Shown: in pieces, positions 3,168 through 63,588 of the stretch
Position numbering within the stretch: the stretch's first letter is position 1
Layout of the letters: every line of letters starts with the position of its first letter
Source of the DNA: Escherichia virus TH57
Direction: 5' to 3' (one strand)
DNA length: 64,000 nt
Sequence record: MT446422.1
The notes under the pieces: model-generated
Told to the model about the DNA's origin: nothing
The model's database searches: none
What the model saw: the letters and a program-made list of their open reading frames with translations, nothing else
Translations under genes and position numbers: made by a program

Positions 3168-3728
3168 ATGATTATTGAAACGACTGAATTGTTTGGCGAA
3201 CTGACCGCTGAAGTAGTTAATAACGCAATTGAGCTTTGTCAAGAAGACGATAAAATCGTACTGACTATCGCTGATATTAAACCGCTTTATGATTTAATGG
3301 TTTTGGATAGACACGATTATCTTAATGGTCGTGCTAGTGCTCCTATTGATATCAATGATGATATGTATGCCTATATCTATAAAAATGAAGCTGGGTTTAA
3401 TCTGGAAAATGGTATTGAATGTCTGAGCATCAGCGATTCTGATAAATTCTTTGATTGTATTTTCAAACTCTTTCAGGAAGAATGTAAACCAGAAGTTGAA
3501 TGGAAAGTCCCAGGACAAGACGCACTGATTCGTTCTAGCGAAACGTTTGAAGGCGATGAAGAGGAATTAGATTATAACACTGAACTGACTGTGCATCAAC
3601 ATAACGGCCGTGACTTGTTGTCCATTGTCCAAAGACATGACGGCGAAAGTGAAGTAGTATTTACTAAGGACGAGCTAAAAGTTTTAGTCTCTTATCTGAA
3701 CTCTGTTATCCCAACTATGAACGCTTAA
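3168..3728 (+). CDS. hypothetical acidic protein
   Basis: 186-aa ORF with GAGGAAA SD, D/E-rich. Confidence 0.55.
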   Translation: MIIETTELFGELTAEVVNNAIELCQEDDKIVLTIADIKPLYDLMVLDRHDYLNGRASAPIDINDDMYAYIYKNEAGFNLENGIECLSISDSDKFFDCIFKLFQEECKPEVEWKVPGQDALIRSSETFEGDEEELDYNTELTVHQHNGRDLLSIVQRHDGESEVVFTKDELKVLVSYLNSVIPTMNA

Positions 3729-35492: not shown

Positions 35493-35658
35493 GATTTCGG
35501 TCTTCCAGATTTTTGAAGAATATGAAATCGTGTCGCAAGACCAAGAAGCAATCCATGTTATCGCTGATGATGGTGTTACCTGGATTATTCCGTTGTATCA
35601 TGAAGACACTTATGAAGTGACTGATGCAAATGGTGATAAAGCTATCTTCGTTGTATAA
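35467..35658 (+). CDS. hypothetical protein
   Basis: 63-aa ORF. Confidence 0.45.
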   Translation: MSAMCTGSKISVFQIFEEYEIVSQDQEAIHVIADDGVTWIIPLYHEDTYEVTDANGDKAIFVV

Positions 35659-35661
35659 ATA
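35654..35661 (+). promoter_or_regulatory. late promoter TATAAATA
   Basis: exact TATAAATA 17 nt upstream of the 35678 ATG. Confidence 0.5.
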
Positions 35662-35677: not shown

Positions 35678-35845
35678 ATGAAAACATTCAAAGATTTTAT
35701 AAACGAAGATATGGTTGCCGGTGATGCAGGTGGAAACCCAACTAATATCGCAACAGGTACCACTTCCGGGGCAGTTGTCAATAAAGGCCCTGAACAAATC
35801 CCATCAAAAAAGCGTAAGAACAAAGACGATAAACCTACAGTATAA
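35678..35845 (+). CDS. hypothetical small protein, possibly late-expressed
   Basis: 55 aa, AAAGGGGG SD, K/R-rich tail, followed by GGTCCC-CC-GGGACC hairpin; not in track. Confidence 0.4.
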   Translation: MKTFKDFINEDMVAGDAGGNPTNIATGTTSGAVVNKGPEQIPSKKRKNKDDKPTV

Positions 35846-35877: not shown

Positions 35878-36906
35878 ATGTCATATATTGATAAAGAATT
35901 TGCGGTCAGAGCTTTATCGTATCAACCACGTTATAGAGAAGTCACCGGGAGCACATTTAAAGCAAACTGTCGTTGTAAGGTTTGCGGGGACTCCCAGAAA
36001 GATTCACATAAGGCTCGATTCTGGGCGTATACCAATCCGTCTGATGGTGCGGTTTACGTGAAATGTTTTAACTGTGACTACTCCACGCATATAAGCAAAT
36101 ACATAAAAGAGTTTGAGCCGGATTTGCACCGGGAATATATGGTTGAGAAGTACAAGGAAAATGCCTTCGGTCGACAACGTAATGAAGTTGCAGAAACTCC
36201 GAAAGAACCAGAAAAAACTCCGGTTATTGAAGAGCTTGCTTTTTGCGAAAGAATCGATACTTTACCAGAAGCACATCCGATAGTTAAGTATGTGAAAAGT
36301 CGGTGTATTCCGAGCAATGTTTGGAACCGGTTATGGTTTACAAACAAATGGCCTGCATTAGTTAACTCCGTTAATCCTGGGACGTATAAGAATGAAACGA
36401 ATGAACCACGCTTGGTTATTCCTATCTTCAACGGCAAAAAAGAAATCGAATCTTTCCAAGGACGAGCTCTTCGCAAAGATGCACCACAAAAATATATCAC
36501 AATCAAAGCTCACCCAGAAGCTTCCAAAGTCTATGGCGTAGACAAGATTGATGAGCGCAAGCGCGTGTGGGTAATGGAAGGTCCGATTGATAGTTTGTTT
36601 ATCCCTAACAGCATTGCGATAACCGGTGGAACATTAGCATTGGAAGCCGTTCCTTATGCTGAAACCCGAGTATGGGTAATGGACAACGAGCCAAGACATC
36701 CGGATACGATTAAACGTATGAAGAAACTCGTTGAAGCTGGCGAAGCTGTTATGTTCTGGGACAATGCACCATGGCATACGAAAGACATAAATGAGATGGT
36801 TAAATCGGAGGGTGCAACCCCTGAACAAATCGAATCATATATGGCCGATAACGTTGCTCAAGGGCTGATGGCGAGAATGCGACTTTCGAAGTACGCAAAA
36901 GTTTAG
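35878..36906 (+). CDS. 61: DNA primase gp61
   Basis: 342 aa; N-terminal zinc ribbon CRCKVCGDS...CFNC; same length as T4 gp61. Confidence 0.9.
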   Translation: MSYIDKEFAVRALSYQPRYREVTGSTFKANCRCKVCGDSQKDSHKARFWAYTNPSDGAVYVKCFNCDYSTHISKYIKEFEPDLHREYMVEKYKENAFGRQRNEVAETPKEPEKTPVIEELAFCERIDTLPEAHPIVKYVKSRCIPSNVWNRLWFTNKWPALVNSVNPGTYKNETNEPRLVIPIFNGKKEIESFQGRALRKDAPQKYITIKAHPEASKVYGVDKIDERKRVWVMEGPIDSLFIPNSIAITGGTLALEAVPYAETRVWVMDNEPRHPDTIKRMKKLVEAGEAVMFWDNAPWHTKDINEMVKSEGATPEQIESYMADNVAQGLMARMRLSKYAKV

Positions 36907-37014
36907 GAAGGGATTCCGGTAAAGTAACCGATGATGGAATGGATATGTTCCATTGTGACCTGAGGTAAGTGTACCCCTTGTGATGCAGCGATAGGCATAA
37001 CCAGTAAGTTCTAC

Positions 37015-37212
37015 CTATATAAGGCCGATTAATGCCAGTGAAACATCTACAACTGATTCGAGTGCGATGACTGGCAATATAACGCCATGTGCCAATGCAA
37101 CAGGGGCAACAATGAAATTCCAGAGTAGAACTAAACAGAGTATCGAAAGGACTAGAATCGTTCGCTTACGACTGCCTTTGATGGCTTGAATTAGACTAGA
37201 TAGTTTTAGCAT
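37015..37212 (-). CDS. hypothetical small membrane protein on opposite strand
   Basis: 65 aa from ATG with AAAGGAGG SD; two hydrophobic segments; only minus-strand ORF with a strong RBS inside the early block. Confidence 0.5.
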   Translation of the reverse strand: MLKLSSLIQAIKGSRKRTILVLSILCLVLLWNFIVAPVALAHGVILPVIALESVVDVSLALIGLI

Positions 37213-37296
37213 ATATCCTCCTTTCTTGTATTTATGCTTCAAACCAATATGATATAATTAACATACAAACAACATGAATTGATAAGGAAAAATATA

Positions 37297-37815
37297 ATGG
37301 CTCATTTTAATGAATGTTCACAACTGATTGCTGGTGTTGACAAAGCTGAAGAAGCTTATGACAATGCAATTATCGAAGGCACTGACCCGCTGCAGATTAT
37401 GCTTGATATGCAGAAATCATTGCAGGTCCGTTTGGCTACTGAAAAACCAGAATACAACTCACATCCAGACGAATTGGCTACCGCCGGCGATGTTGTTGCA
37501 TGGCTTCGTAACCAGAAAGATTATGTTGATGATGAATTCCGTGAACTTCTAACTTCTCTCGGTGGTATGTCTAATGGCGAGAAAGCTGCATCTAGTGTAT
37601 GGAAGCCTTGGAAAGCCCAACATGCTGAATTCCGTAATCGTCGTATTGATGAGTTGTCTCCTGAAGACCAGCTCGAAATTAAATTTGAGATGATTGACAT
37701 CCTGCACTTTGTTCTGAACATGTTCCATGGTCTTGGCCTGTCGGCAGAAGAAATCTTTAAATTGTATTACCTGAAAAATGCTGAAAACTTTGCTCGTCAA
37801 GACCGAGGTTATTAA
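37297..37815 (+). CDS. 56: dCTPase-dUTPase gp56
   Basis: 172 aa from MAHFNEC; strong match to recalled T4 gp56. Confidence 0.9.
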   Translation: MAHFNECSQLIAGVDKAEEAYDNAIIEGTDPLQIMLDMQKSLQVRLATEKPEYNSHPDELATAGDVVAWLRNQKDYVDDEFRELLTSLGGMSNGEKAASSVWKPWKAQHAEFRNRRIDELSPEDQLEIKFEMIDILHFVLNMFHGLGLSAEEIFKLYYLKNAENFARQDRGY

Positions 37816-38096
37816 TGGCTCGTTTAAATAAACGACAGCTTAAGAAAGCTCGTAAGAAGCATATTAATGATATAATTGAAAACGCTAATGTTGAAATCTT
37901 TGTAGAACTTTTAGCCAATCAACTAAAAAATTTATCTAAACAAGAAATTGCTATGAATACTGAAAATGCTAAAAATGTAATCGAAACTCATAATGTTTTT
38001 GCCCAAGCTACTGCTGAATACATTGCTAATCCTACTGCTGAAAATCTAGCTAAAATGACCGAAGCCAATAAAGCAGTCCAAGCCGCCAAATTGTAA
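37815..38096 (+). CDS. hypothetical protein
   Basis: 93-aa helical basic ORF, ATGA-type overlap. Confidence 0.5.
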   Translation: MARLNKRQLKKARKKHINDIIENANVEIFVELLANQLKNLSKQEIAMNTENAKNVIETHNVFAQATAEYIANPTAENLAKMTEANKAVQAAKL

Positions 38097-47750: not shown

Positions 47751-49583
47751 ATGATGATTAATAATGAAATTAAAGTACTCTCGGACGTCGAGCATATCAA
47801 AAAACGTTCCGGGATGTATATTGGTTCCAGTTCAAATGAAGCGCATGAGCGATTCTTGTTTGGTGAATATAAGTCCGTAAGCTATGTTCCTGGTATTGTA
47901 AAACTGATTGATGAAATTATTGATAACTCTGTTGATGAAGCAATTCGCACCAGTTTTAAATTTGCCAATAAAATTGATGTCCAAATTAAAGATAATCAGA
48001 TTTCGGTTTCTGATAATGGCCGTGGTATTCCACAGGCAATGGTTACAGACCAAAACGGTGAACAAATCCCTGGCCCTGTTGCAGCATGGACTATTCCAAA
48101 AGCAGGTGGCAACTTCGGCGATGATGCTGAACGTAAAACTGGCGGGATGAATGGCGTCGGGTCTTCTCTGACCAATATTTTCTCCGTATTGTTCACCGGG
48201 ATTACCGCTGATGGGGCGAACGAAATTACTGTTAACTGCTCCAACGGTATGGAAAACAAATGTTGGTCGACTAAGAAATCAAAGGGTAAAGGTACGACTG
48301 TTATATTTATTCCAGATTTTAGTCACTTTGAAGAAAATAGTCTGTCCCAGATTTATCTGGATATTACATTGGACCGTCTGCAGACTCTTGCTGTTGTTTA
48401 TCCGGATATTCAGTTCACCTTTAATGGTAAAAAGGTTGATGGCAACTTCAAGAAGTTCTCCAAGCAATTCGGAACCGAAGTTGTTATTCAGGAAACTGAT
48501 ACAGTATCGATGGCCTTTACGACCAGCCCAGACGGTTTCCGTCAGTTGACTTATGTCAACAACATTCATACAAAGAATGGCGGACACCACGTTGAATGTG
48601 TTATGGATGATATCTGTGAACACCTTCAGCCGGCGATTAAGCGCAAATATAAAGGCATTGAGGTGACCAAGGCACGAGTTAAAGAATGTCTCACCATGCT
48701 TATGTTCATCCGCGATATGAGCAACATGCGATTTGATTCCCAAACCAAGGAGCGATTGACTTCTCCGGCTGGTGAAATCCGAAATCACATTAAGATTGAT
48801 GCTAAGAAAATCGCGCAAGCTATTCTGAAAAATGAACCGCTGATTATGCCGATTGTTGAAGCTGCATTAGCCCGTAAATTGGCTGCAGAGAAAGCAGCAG
48901 AGACTAAGGCAAATAAGAAAGCTTCAAAGGCCAAGGTACAAAAGCATATCAAGGCCAACGAATGGGGCAATGATAAGTTGGAAACGACTCTATTCCTGAC
49001 CGAAGGGGATTCTGCAACTGGCCCATTTATCAAGGTTCGCGACCGTGAATTGCAGGGTGCTTATCCATTACGGGGCAAGTTTAAAAACACATGGGGCCTG
49101 AAAGCTATTGACGTTATGAAGAACGCTGAAGCCTTTGATGTGTGTGCAATTACTGGATTAACGATTGGACAACCGGCCGAGAATATGAATTACCGAAACA
49201 TTGCTATCATGACAGATGCGGATGTGGATGGTGTCGGTAGTATCTATCCATCGTTATTGGCGTTTTTCAGTAACTGGCCAGAGCTGTTCCATGAAGGACG
49301 AATTCGCTTTGTGAAAACTCCTGTTATTATTGCGCAGCTCAAAGATAAACAAGAATGGTTCTATTCTCTTCCTGACTATGAAGAAGCTAAGGATAAACTT
49401 CCGAAGCACACCATCCGATACATCAAGGGACTTGGTTCTCTGGAAGATGCCGAGTACAAACGCGTATTGCTCGAACCGGTATTCGAAGTTGTTCAATTGC
49501 CTGACAACTGGAAAGAACTGTTTGAAATGTTATTCGGTAAAGATTCCCAGCAGCGCAAAGATTGGATGAATGCGACGCTATAA
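47751..49583 (+). CDS. 39: DNA topoisomerase II large subunit gp39 (ATPase), unsplit
   Basis: 610 aa continuous ORF covering the region that T4 splits into genes 39 and 60. Confidence 0.92.
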   Translation: MMINNEIKVLSDVEHIKKRSGMYIGSSSNEAHERFLFGEYKSVSYVPGIVKLIDEIIDNSVDEAIRTSFKFANKIDVQIKDNQISVSDNGRGIPQAMVTDQNGEQIPGPVAAWTIPKAGGNFGDDAERKTGGMNGVGSSLTNIFSVLFTGITADGANEITVNCSNGMENKCWSTKKSKGKGTTVIFIPDFSHFEENSLSQIYLDITLDRLQTLAVVYPDIQFTFNGKKVDGNFKKFSKQFGTEVVIQETDTVSMAFTTSPDGFRQLTYVNNIHTKNGGHHVECVMDDICEHLQPAIKRKYKGIEVTKARVKECLTMLMFIRDMSNMRFDSQTKERLTSPAGEIRNHIKIDAKKIAQAILKNEPLIMPIVEAALARKLAAEKAAETKANKKASKAKVQKHIKANEWGNDKLETTLFLTEGDSATGPFIKVRDRELQGAYPLRGKFKNTWGLKAIDVMKNAEAFDVCAITGLTIGQPAENMNYRNIAIMTDADVDGVGSIYPSLLAFFSNWPELFHEGRIRFVKTPVIIAQLKDKQEWFYSLPDYEEAKDKLPKHTIRYIKGLGSLEDAEYKRVLLEPVFEVVQLPDNWKELFEMLFGKDSQQRKDWMNATL

Positions 49584-62076: not shown

Positions 62077-62352
62077 ATGACTAAATTTGAAATTGTTTCT
62101 GAAATTGTTACTATAACTTCAATTTTGATTAAAACCGACCGGGAAGATATTACGATGAAGCGTGATGTGTTTATCGCGTTTTTGAATGAGTTGGGATTAA
62201 GGAATGAGAATGGTAATGAGTTAAACAATGTATCGTTTAACAAGTTGTTTAAAAGTTTATCTGAAGATGAAATTGAACAAATCATTGAACAATTTAACGA
62301 AGGATTCGAAGATATACACCGATATCTGATGATGTATACCTCCGGATTCTAA
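62077..62352 (+). CDS. asiA: anti-sigma70 factor AsiA
   Basis: 91 aa; ITSILIK..REDI...FIAFLNE...EQFNEGFE..HRYL matches recalled T4 AsiA. Confidence 0.9.
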   Translation: MTKFEIVSEIVTITSILIKTDREDITMKRDVFIAFLNELGLRNENGNELNNVSFNKLFKSLSEDEIEQIIEQFNEGFEDIHRYLMMYTSGF

Positions 62353-63002
62353 CGTGTACGCCCGAGCGTACGACCTGCTTGCCCACACATAGCAGAAAGC
62401 CTATCAAAACTAAGGTCGGGTTTTTGCTTATACCAGTACAGCGAGACTGTACCTGCATAAACGTTTTCCAAATTAAAGAATGGGCAGCTGAACATATATT
62501 CGAAGCTGCTTTTTTTCTTTGTTGGTAAGAATACAGATTCCGTGCCGGATTCAAAATAATTACCATTAACCCCCGCCAAATATTCCGCTGAAGTTTTATC
62601 TATTGGAAACCCACCCAAGTTTTTTTCGTCGACTGTATCAGGTAATATCCCCTCATAACCCACCATATCCACGAAGTAGTTAAGGTTAGTTGGTCTAAAA
62701 GAATATATTGCTGTAAAGTCTGCCCCACTTGATGAGTGAACTATCTGGATTTGCTCGATAGCTGCAATTTTAAATCTGTTATCCTGGTCTTGCCTTATCA
62801 TTTCTGTGTACGAGGCATATGAAGCATCCCTATACGCATCTAAAATTGCATCACCTTTATACCAGATTACCGCCATTAAAAATAATAGAACAATAACTAG
62901 TACCCGGGAAAAAACAACTTTCCCGGTTGCATTATCTTTAAAAATTCTATCAAGAAGTCCAAAAAGTAGGTCGGGTATTGAGATTCCTACTTTTGGTTCC
63001 AT
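62349..63002 (-). CDS. t: holin T
   Basis: 217 aa; N-terminal LLFGLLDRIFKDNATGKV and TM segment match recalled T4 holin; stop overlaps asiA stop. Confidence 0.9.
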   Translation of the reverse strand: MEPKVGISIPDLLFGLLDRIFKDNATGKVVFSRVLVIVLLFLMAVIWYKGDAILDAYRDASYASYTEMIRQDQDNRFKIAAIEQIQIVHSSSGADFTAIYSFRPTNLNYFVDMVGYEGILPDTVDEKNLGGFPIDKTSAEYLAGVNGNYFESGTESVFLPTKKKSSFEYMFSCPFFNLENVYAGTVSLYWYKQKPDLSFDRLSAMCGQAGRTLGRTR

Positions 63003-63020: not shown

Positions 63021-63028
63021 TATTTATA
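63021..63028 (-). promoter_or_regulatory. late promoter TATAAATA for gene t
   Basis: TATAAATA on minus strand about 18 nt upstream of the t ATG, with AAAGGAG SD. Confidence 0.6.
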
Positions 63029-63042
63029 ATGCTTTTGCGTTA

Positions 63043-63588
63043 TTATTTTTTAAACAATCCTTTGAAGAATGATTTTTTCTCTTTCTCTGGCCAAGCCGGG
63101 AATTCACCACCAAGGTGTTCGTGTTTTTCTAAAAGAGCAAAGAAACGTTTAAGATTCTGGTGATAGAATTTTTCTTTCTTATCGGCGACTGAGGCTTCAA
63201 CCATATTACTTAATACCTGGAATTCTTTATACAAATCGTCAATTTTTCGATTACGAATTAAAACGCGTTTATAGGTTTCGTCTTCTTTCCAGCCATCGTC
63301 GGTCCACACATCAAATTCACCAGGCTCGTCAAAAGATATACCGACTGGGCTTCCTATGTCATTTATTAAGATTTCTTCTTTATTAAAAGTCCATGCACGT
63401 TTGCCTCGATGGTCTTCTTCATAAATCCAATCTTGAACGCGTTCATCAAATACAACGGCGAAACCTTCTTTAGGTTCCAATGGTTCCTTTGTGGTTGAGT
63501 GAGCCGGGAGACCAAGACCTTTAATGGGTTTATAATTTTCTTCTTTGTAAAATTCTTTTGTGTCAAAATAAAAATGATAAATTTTCAT
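63043..63588 (-). CDS. 38: tail fibre assembly protein gp38 (T4-type)
   Basis: 181 aa from MKIYHFYFDTKEFYKEENYKP, near-identical to recalled T4 gp38 (track ORF starts at upstream TTG). Confidence 0.9.
   Translation of the reverse strand: MKIYHFYFDTKEFYKEENYKPIKGLGLPAHSTTKEPLEPKEGFAVVFDERVQDWIYEEDHRGKRAWTFNKEEILINDIGSPVGISFDEPGEFDVWTDDGWKEDETYKRVLIRNRKIDDLYKEFQVLSNMVEASVADKKEKFYHQNLKRFFALLEKHEHLGGEFPAWPEKEKKSFFKGLFKK

Follow-up and report, generated by a model that had tools for sequence, protein, structure and literature searches.

Judged from its sequence and from that of its relatives, the open reading frame (ORF) at 37015..37212 on the minus strand of Escherichia virus TH57 is a real, conserved protein-coding gene of the T4-type enterobacterial phages (Tevenvirinae). 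The combined evidence is best explained by a conserved gene which is probably transcribed late and encodes a small inner-membrane protein, with a speculative role as a modulator of a larger membrane protein; we give this reading a probability of about 0.8. All positions refer to the window, which is the whole analysed stretch of 64,000 nucleotides from this T4-type phage of the genus Gaprivervirus.

The small gene and its ribosome-binding site

The gene is of the T4/RB69 type and is called paralogue A in the following. Its assignment is based on the ORF list, the match to the profile phrog_2024, tblastn, dN/dS ratios and an AF2 model. The mechanical ORF call starts from a TTG codon (37015..37242, minus strand), and translation from the ATG at 37212 yields 65 aa, MLKLSS...IGLI, up to a TAG stop codon (37017..37015); the ORF is thus present as described in the first-pass annotation. 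Read along the minus strand, the order is CATAAATA (37236..37229), CAAG, the Shine-Dalgarno (SD) sequence AAAGGAGG (37224..37217), ATAT and the ATG (37212..37210), with 4 nt between CATAAATA and AAAGGAGG and again 4 nt between AAAGGAGG and the start codon. The strong SD sequence that had been claimed is therefore found, but with a spacing of 4 nt and not of 5 nt.

Twelve minus-strand ORFs of at least 30 aa in the window are preceded by an SD-like match of at least 5 nt. When a match of at least 6 nt was demanded in the scripted scan of ORFs of at least 30 aa, the 65-aa ORF was the only one left on the minus strand between positions 1 and 62000, and within that range it is indeed the sole minus-strand ORF with a strong ribosome-binding site. 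The next minus-strand ORF with such a match (AAGGAG) has 217 aa and is located at 62349..63002; we recognise it as the homologue of the T holin. A GGAG-containing SD core is present at all homologous loci compared.

Distribution and conservation of the family

The family is already catalogued as PHROG 2024, and its members are annotated as hypothetical in VR7, RB69, RB14 and hundreds of genomes. All residues of the product (1-65 of 65) match the phrog_2024 profile with E=3.8e-26, the function being given as unknown in PHROG, and 13 of 13 diverse relatives match the same profile (best E=1.5e-31). The NCBI database already contains a protein with 100% identity (P0001). The 600 bp round the ORF share 98% identity with phage TH54 and 90-95% with VR7, VR20, SP18 and others.

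With the window protein as tblastn query, matches were found in 692 phage records, and two distant family members as queries added a further 97 and 183 records. Named homologues are VR7ORF033w in VR7, RB32ORF030w in RB14 and RB51, and RB69ORF029w in RB69. The hits of the distant queries include Edwardsiella phage PEi20, Enterobacter phage CIP9, the Dhakavirus JS98, many Klebsiella T4-like phages, the Citrobacter phages CkP1 and CF1, and Salmonella phage Melville. Relatives are present in six genera of the Tevenvirinae. Four of these (Gaprivervirus, Tequatrovirus, Mosigvirus and Dhakavirus) are assigned by record taxonomy or title; the other two are represented by the PEi20-type and the Klebsiella-type phages. 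When 1.84 billion representative proteins were searched with a profile, 8 clusters at 50% identity were obtained. Each traced cluster comes from a T4-like contig, where the gene, in opposite orientation, separates the primase gene from the dUTPase/gene 56, and no relative outside the T4-like phages was found among these 1.84 billion proteins.

Pairwise dN/dS values range from 0.07 to 0.37, and the synonymous sites are saturated between genera. Position and orientation are kept down to about 30% identity, and in the annotated T-even relatives the lengths of the homologues vary only from 60 to 68 aa. Conservation in related phages had been named as one of the checks for this gene, and the 692 records, the common locus and the dN/dS range provide it. 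The window copy resembles the other members of PHROG 2024 (VR7ORF033w, RB32ORF030w, RB69ORF029w) in the family profile, the antisense orientation, the site between gene 61 and gene 56/dam, and the length. It differs from these relatives by its distance of 108 bp from gene 61, compared to overlapping stops, because a shortened second paralogue lies between the two genes.

A chance ORF in an intergenic region with a fortuitous SD sequence has to be considered for such a gene: it is short, AT-rich DNA yields ORFs, and it is unannotated in the RefSeq record of T4 and in that of JS98. Conservation, synteny and dN/dS refute a chance origin, to which we give practically no credit. The 65-aa ORF, its strong ribosome-binding site, the conservation, the purifying selection and the fixed locus together indicate a genuine gene.

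Gene neighbourhood and comparison with T4

The small gene is flanked by gene 61 and gene 56, both on the plus strand. Gene 61 (DNA primase, 35878..36906) is the convergent neighbour and was assigned by phrog_47 (E=1e-94) and synteny; gene 56 (dCTPase/dUTPase, 37297..37815) is the divergent neighbour and was assigned by phrog_173 (E=5.7e-45). The small protein is 52% identical to its T4 counterpart, compared to 60% for gp61 and 69% for gp56, and has thus diverged only slightly more than the two enzymes beside it. In all lineages compared the small gene is antisense to early genes and convergent on gene 61, and in T4, RB69, RB14, JS98 and PEi20 its stop overlaps that of gene 61 by 4 bp.

In the first-pass annotation the locus was contrasted with that of T4. 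This contrast does not hold, since the orthologue is present in T4 as well, between dam and gene 61: it has 66 codons (NC_000866 17738..17938, plus strand; L008 2739-2939) and is located inside the 309-bp gap between these genes, where the RefSeq record holds no feature. The record of JS98 likewise lacks an annotation at the corresponding place (NC_010105 15343..15543; L027 1114-1314).

The gap between genes 61 and 56 is a recurrent hotspot of insertion and deletion, which is occupied by dam in T4, by MazG-like genes in PEi20 and by a homing endonuclease gene in P8. On the other side of gene 56, between that gene and soc, a 93-aa ORF (37815-38096, plus strand) takes the place that segF has in T4 and VR7; its N-terminal half matches phrog_5782, "virion structural protein", with E=3.7e-15. 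In T4 a hairpin which resembles a terminator and has a run of T (ATGGCATTAACAAGTGCCAT TAATTTTTGT; L005 2007-2026) is found on the early strand just 3' of gene 61, within the 5' portion of the small coding sequence. An equivalent of this hairpin downstream of gene 61 was not found in the window.

On the strand of the small gene, neither the window nor T4 was found to have an intrinsic terminator 3' of the ORF, so that a late transcript could extend antisense into gene 61. Such a late antisense RNA could itself be the functional product, lowering the level of primase mRNA or blocking read-through on the early strand. Convergence on gene 61, often with overlapping stops, is the most conserved feature of the locus, and transcription of both strands is described for some sites of T4 (PMC2988020). 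The purifying selection, however, acts on amino acids while the synonymous sites are saturated, and the ORF length, the strong SD sequence and the residue motifs are kept down to about 30% identity. In the metagenomic lineage L023 the stop codon of the small gene is located inside a canonical intrinsic terminator (3202-3223, plus strand) with a perfect 9-bp stem, a TTCG loop and a T6 tail, and antisense read-through is therefore not family-wide. The same lineage has an additional 124-aa gene between the small gene and the primase gene. We give the antisense RNA only a slight chance as the product of the locus, and its role would be secondary at most.

A decayed second paralogue next to gene 61

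From the end of gene 61 (36906) to the stop codon of the ORF (37015-37017) 108 bp are counted. The length given in the first-pass annotation is thus correct, but the segment is no spacer: by alignment with MN01 it corresponds to a shortened second paralogue. As far as can be read from the alignment with MN01, VR7 and EAWsc9, the gap is a dead paralogue (paralogue B, JS98/MN01 type; 36903..37014, minus strand), which in the window phage has been cut to a non-functional remnant of the 3' half.

An intact B copy is present in MN01. It has 66 aa, starts 8 nt after the stop of the first gene and overlaps the stop of gene 61; its product is MGTLFYQIWKLTSKKDKKLIMGFLALDVFLWNLLVVPIAASQGVHLPQVTMEHIHSIIGYFTGIPS. 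Paralogues A and B are 40% identical over 42 aa (E=3e-10), B also matches phrog_2024, and in JS98 the B type is the only copy. Relative to MN01, 97 bp between two GTGGAACT repeats are missing from the window, and with them the start of paralogue B and most of its helix. At the deletion junction a Trp codon has been changed from TGG to TAG. The remnant still encodes ...PIAASQGVHLPQVTMEHIHSIIGYFTGIPS, and a residual ORF of 31 codons (36903..36998) overlaps the gene 61 stop by 4 bp and has no SD sequence. Unusual RNA folding was not found for the 108-bp segment (z=-1.65).

Paralogue B has been damaged in other ways elsewhere, by a different deletion in EAWsc9 and its relatives and by a 1-bp insertion in VR7. 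In the Yersinia phage P8 (L004 1754-2521), in RZ and in DK-13 a homing endonuclease gene follows directly after gene 61 and adjoins the B remnant. Paralogue A is intact in all B-damaged Gapriverviruses compared. The intact A copies and the repeated decay of B suggest that the two paralogues are functionally redundant.

A probable late promoter variant

Upstream of the SD sequence the box CATAAATA (37229..37236, minus strand) corresponds to a putative late promoter box of the gp55 type (-13 to -6), in which C replaces T at -13. The first-pass annotation had noted that it is one mismatch away from the late promoter TATAAATA, and the mismatch is located at the tolerated position -13. Eleven lineages were compared, namely the window, T4, a second T4-type contig, RB14, RB69, JS98, PEi20 and four metagenomic types. 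ATAAATA is found 14-33 nt before the ATG in 11 of 11, with differing flanks, and the preceding base is C in four lineages, G in four, A in three and T in none (0/11). Among the TATAAATA sites listed for T4 late promoters, 32 of 50 are perfect and in 9 of 50 the base at -13 is A (PMC2988020). In T4 relatives, the T at this position is described as poorly conserved (PMC1524935).

Counted on both strands of the window, VATAAATA occurs 3 times, compared to 17 +/- 3.8 expected from shuffles, which indicates that such boxes are avoided where they are unwanted. The perfect TATAAATA occurs 5 times (4.9 expected). These numbers suggest that stray late boxes close to the consensus are selected against in the early region. 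Perfect boxes precede soc (38099) and, on the minus strand, t (63021-63028), where the box is 18 nt upstream of the ATG. The layout of t in the window is TATAAATA-5 nt-AAAGGAG-6 nt-ATG, and that of the small gene is CATAAATA-4 nt-AAAGGAGG-4 nt-ATG. A further minus-strand ORF of 145 aa (63043-63480) is located beyond t.

Conservation of the box, the t-like layout and the tolerance at -13 lead us to infer late, gp55-dependent transcription. CATAAATA is very probably a working late-promoter variant, and transcription would start at about 37223 on the minus strand with a very short leader of about 11 nt, much like that of t. Since T is never found at -13, the promoter may be weak. In the published promoter survey of RB69 no late promoter was called at this locus (PMC1524935). 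For T4 a table of 150 transcription start sites from dRNA-seq, of which 22 are antisense, has been published (bioRxiv 10.1101/2024.04.04.588121).

Two other boxes of the window may be mentioned here. A perfect TATAAATA (35654-35661, plus strand) precedes the homologue of gene 61.1 (55 aa, 35678..35845) at a distance of 16 nt from its ATG, and this gene combines a late-type box with a place in the early cluster on the early strand. A second hidden gene was considered behind AATAAATA at 48304-48311, the other VATAAATA copy of the minus strand, and was rejected, as this site is antisense inside the topoisomerase gene (610-aa ORF, 47751..49583) and no ORF follows.

Overlap with a putative middle promoter of gene 56

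The late box adjoins a putative MotA-type middle promoter of gene 56 (37235..37258, plus strand). The consensus of the MotA box is (a/t)3TGCTT(t/c)A. In the window TGCTTCA (37235-37241) is followed by an 11-nt spacer and TATAAT (37253-37258), which is preceded by TG. For RB69 a middle promoter is predicted at the equivalent place (Pm:16038; PMC1524935 supplement). A scan for sigma-70 promoters did not report this putative promoter, which has no -35.

The first-pass annotation had stated that oriA of T4 is not apparent here. The RefSeq record of T4 (NC_000866) equates the oriA primer with the transcript of genes 56 and segF. As an equivalent of the gene 56 middle promoter is recognisable at 37235-37258, the absence of oriA cannot be concluded.

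The MotA box and the late box are divergent and overlap by 2 nt, and the non-consensus C at -13 of the late box is the G of TGCTT on the other strand. In this lineage, the gene 56 promoter, and not late transcription, could therefore hold part of the late motif in place.

Architecture of the protein

The AF2 model, calculated from a 14-sequence alignment, contains helices at residues 2-11, 15-41 and 51-64 (mean pLDDT 77). The N-terminal 17 residues have a net charge of +5. Residues 18-41 are uncharged with a mean Kyte-Doolittle (KD) value of 2.50, and residues 42-65 have a mean of 1.97 with two acidic and no basic residues. Two hydrophobic segments, as noted in the first-pass annotation, are thus present in the window copy, but family-wide only one transmembrane (TM) helix is robust. 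The best 19-residue window of the tail reaches a KD value of 2.27 in the window copy and 0.6-1.7 in distant relatives, whose tails contain Pro-Pro, Glu, Lys or Arg. For RB69ORF029w, TMHMM predicts a single TM segment at 21-41 (PMC1524935 supplement).

In 13 sequences with 25-55% identity W31, P37 and G43 never vary, N32 and P47 are kept in at least 90%, and the acidic residue at 53 is also invariant or near-invariant. The window protein has the family signature, in which a basic patch is followed by a TM segment with W-N-[FYL]x3-P and this by G-x3-P with an acidic residue after it. All of these conserved positions (W31-N32, P37, G43, P47 and acidic 53) map to the helix's outer half or immediately past its end. 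The best family-wide reading is a single-pass inner-membrane protein (N-in, C-out) with a short acidic hydrophobic tail at the periplasmic face, and the window copy may form a two-helix hairpin.

Homology searches

Pfam and NCBIfam gave no match at E<=10, PADLOC only a meaningless one (E=0.045), and the profile search against the PDB only YejA (E=0.38). Foldseek against viral models returned same-family members alone at E<=0.1, and no Rfam family was found on either strand of 36700-37500. Homology to any holin, exclusion protein or toxin was not detected by Pfam, NCBIfam, PADLOC, PHROG and the fold search. Our literature search found no study of the gene, and no transcript, protein or phenotype data for any family member. 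We know of no r-type or lysis mutant which was mapped at the locus.

Possible function

The gene would be transcribed late in infection and against the direction of the surrounding early genes. Its 65-residue product would insert in the inner membrane with the basic N-terminus in the cytoplasm, one TM helix spanning about residues 18-41, and the 24-residue acidic hydrophobic tail at the periplasmic face. Among small membrane proteins with a single pass, most of those characterised modulate a larger membrane protein. The small protein resembles MgrB, AcrZ and MgtS in its size, its N-in single helix and the conservation in or next to the helix; this is a likeness of architecture only and no homology. 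An MgrB-like architecture suggests helix-helix binding to a larger membrane protein, and we speculate that the small protein binds such a partner through the conserved helix face and the juxtamembrane tail and modulates it late in infection.

The leading candidate for the partner would be the lysis apparatus (holin T, antiholin RI or spanin), ahead of a host envelope protein, as timing, location and T-even-restricted distribution make the lysis and lysis-inhibition machinery the most plausible target, a step to which we nevertheless give well below even odds. With the holin T and antiholin RI of T4 the small gene has in common the late-type promoter, the inner membrane as location, the restriction to T-even phages and the t-like spacing of promoter and SD sequence. 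Neither protein has sequence or fold similarity to the small protein, and both t and rI are far away. T is moreover much larger (217 aa in the window), and RI has a SAR-type secretory N-terminus and a globular periplasmic domain, which the small protein lacks.

In a few genomes the family is labelled as a holin ("holin family protein" in EAWsc9, "putative holin" in KP1079, "Holin" in UniProt for OE5505). A holin or pinholin-type lysis protein which permeabilises the inner membrane at a set time would be small and membrane-embedded and could have a late promoter; the promoter and ribosome-binding site layout in common with t and the polar Asn in the middle of the helix would also fit. However, no holin family of Pfam or NCBIfam matched at E<=10, the PHROG function is unknown, and the only "Holin" matches of the fold search are OE5505, which belongs to the same family, and one unrelated protein at E=1.9. 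A charged hydrophilic C-terminal domain is missing, the last 24 residues being hydrophobic with 2 acidic and 0 basic ones. The gene is not located in a lysis cassette either; its neighbours are the primase and dCTPase genes, and the T holin gene, which these phages already carry, is 25 kb away (62349..63002). It is established from T4 genetics that t-null T4 does not lyse, and so there is no second sufficient holin. The "holin" labels are without any support that we could find, a holin function appears very unlikely, and we suppose, speculatively, that the protein is not a stand-alone holin.

The first-pass annotation had also suggested an exclusion modulator or a type I toxin-like peptide. 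Such a peptide would damage or seal the membrane, and so kill the host or keep out superinfecting phage, and would be restrained by overlapping antisense early transcripts. One TM helix and a basic N-terminus resemble small membrane toxins, and early read-through from gene 61 to gene 56 would be antisense to the small gene. The type I toxins Hok and TisB are similar in being small hydrophobic peptides whose genes are overlapped by antisense transcription. They differ in that neither homology nor a dedicated antitoxin sRNA was found here: PADLOC and Pfam revealed no toxin or defence family, and no Rfam family matched on either strand of 36700-37500. Early transcription antisense to the small gene is expected, but it would not amount to a dedicated sRNA. 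The small gene moreover has a late-type promoter and belongs to a strictly lytic phage, to which a post-segregational toxin is of no obvious use.

As for exclusion, Imm and Sp of T4 are likewise small T-even envelope proteins, and the exclusion gene sp (spackle) is located in the neighbourhood, a few genes away. But both imm and sp count as early genes and are encoded by the early strand, in contrast to the small gene with its late-type box, and they show no sequence similarity to it (PHROG and Pfam searches give phrog_2024 only). Furthermore, the phages persist although their paralogue B has decayed repeatedly. We consider a toxin or exclusion peptide improbable, and prefer a modulator of a larger membrane protein.

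Significance

As a sequence feature the gene is ordinary, since it is a hypothetical gene which had already been catalogued. What is added by this analysis is the conserved, probable late-promoter variant, its overlap with the putative middle promoter of gene 56, the argument for a single-pass topology, the explanation of the 108-bp gap as a shortened paralogue, and the finding that the gene is lacking from the reference records of T4 and JS98. A conserved gene for a membrane protein, which is probably late, has been mislabelled as "holin" in a few genomes. The paralogue pair, with its repeated and independent decay, offers a natural experiment in which redundancy can be studied.

T4 serves as the model of lysis timing and of lysis inhibition, which makes one more conserved late membrane peptide a cheap and clearly defined target for a knockout. 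It is possible, as a tentative reading to which we give clearly less than even odds, that every T-even-type phage, T4 among them, has a late inner-membrane peptide which adjusts some event at the membrane when infection ends. Most attractive would be a third modulator, beside RI and RIII, of the time at which the T holin fires; alternatively the peptide may inhibit a host envelope enzyme. If so, T4 genetics would have missed it for sixty years because the target measures 200 bp, is absent from the reference annotation and is sometimes backed by a paralogue.
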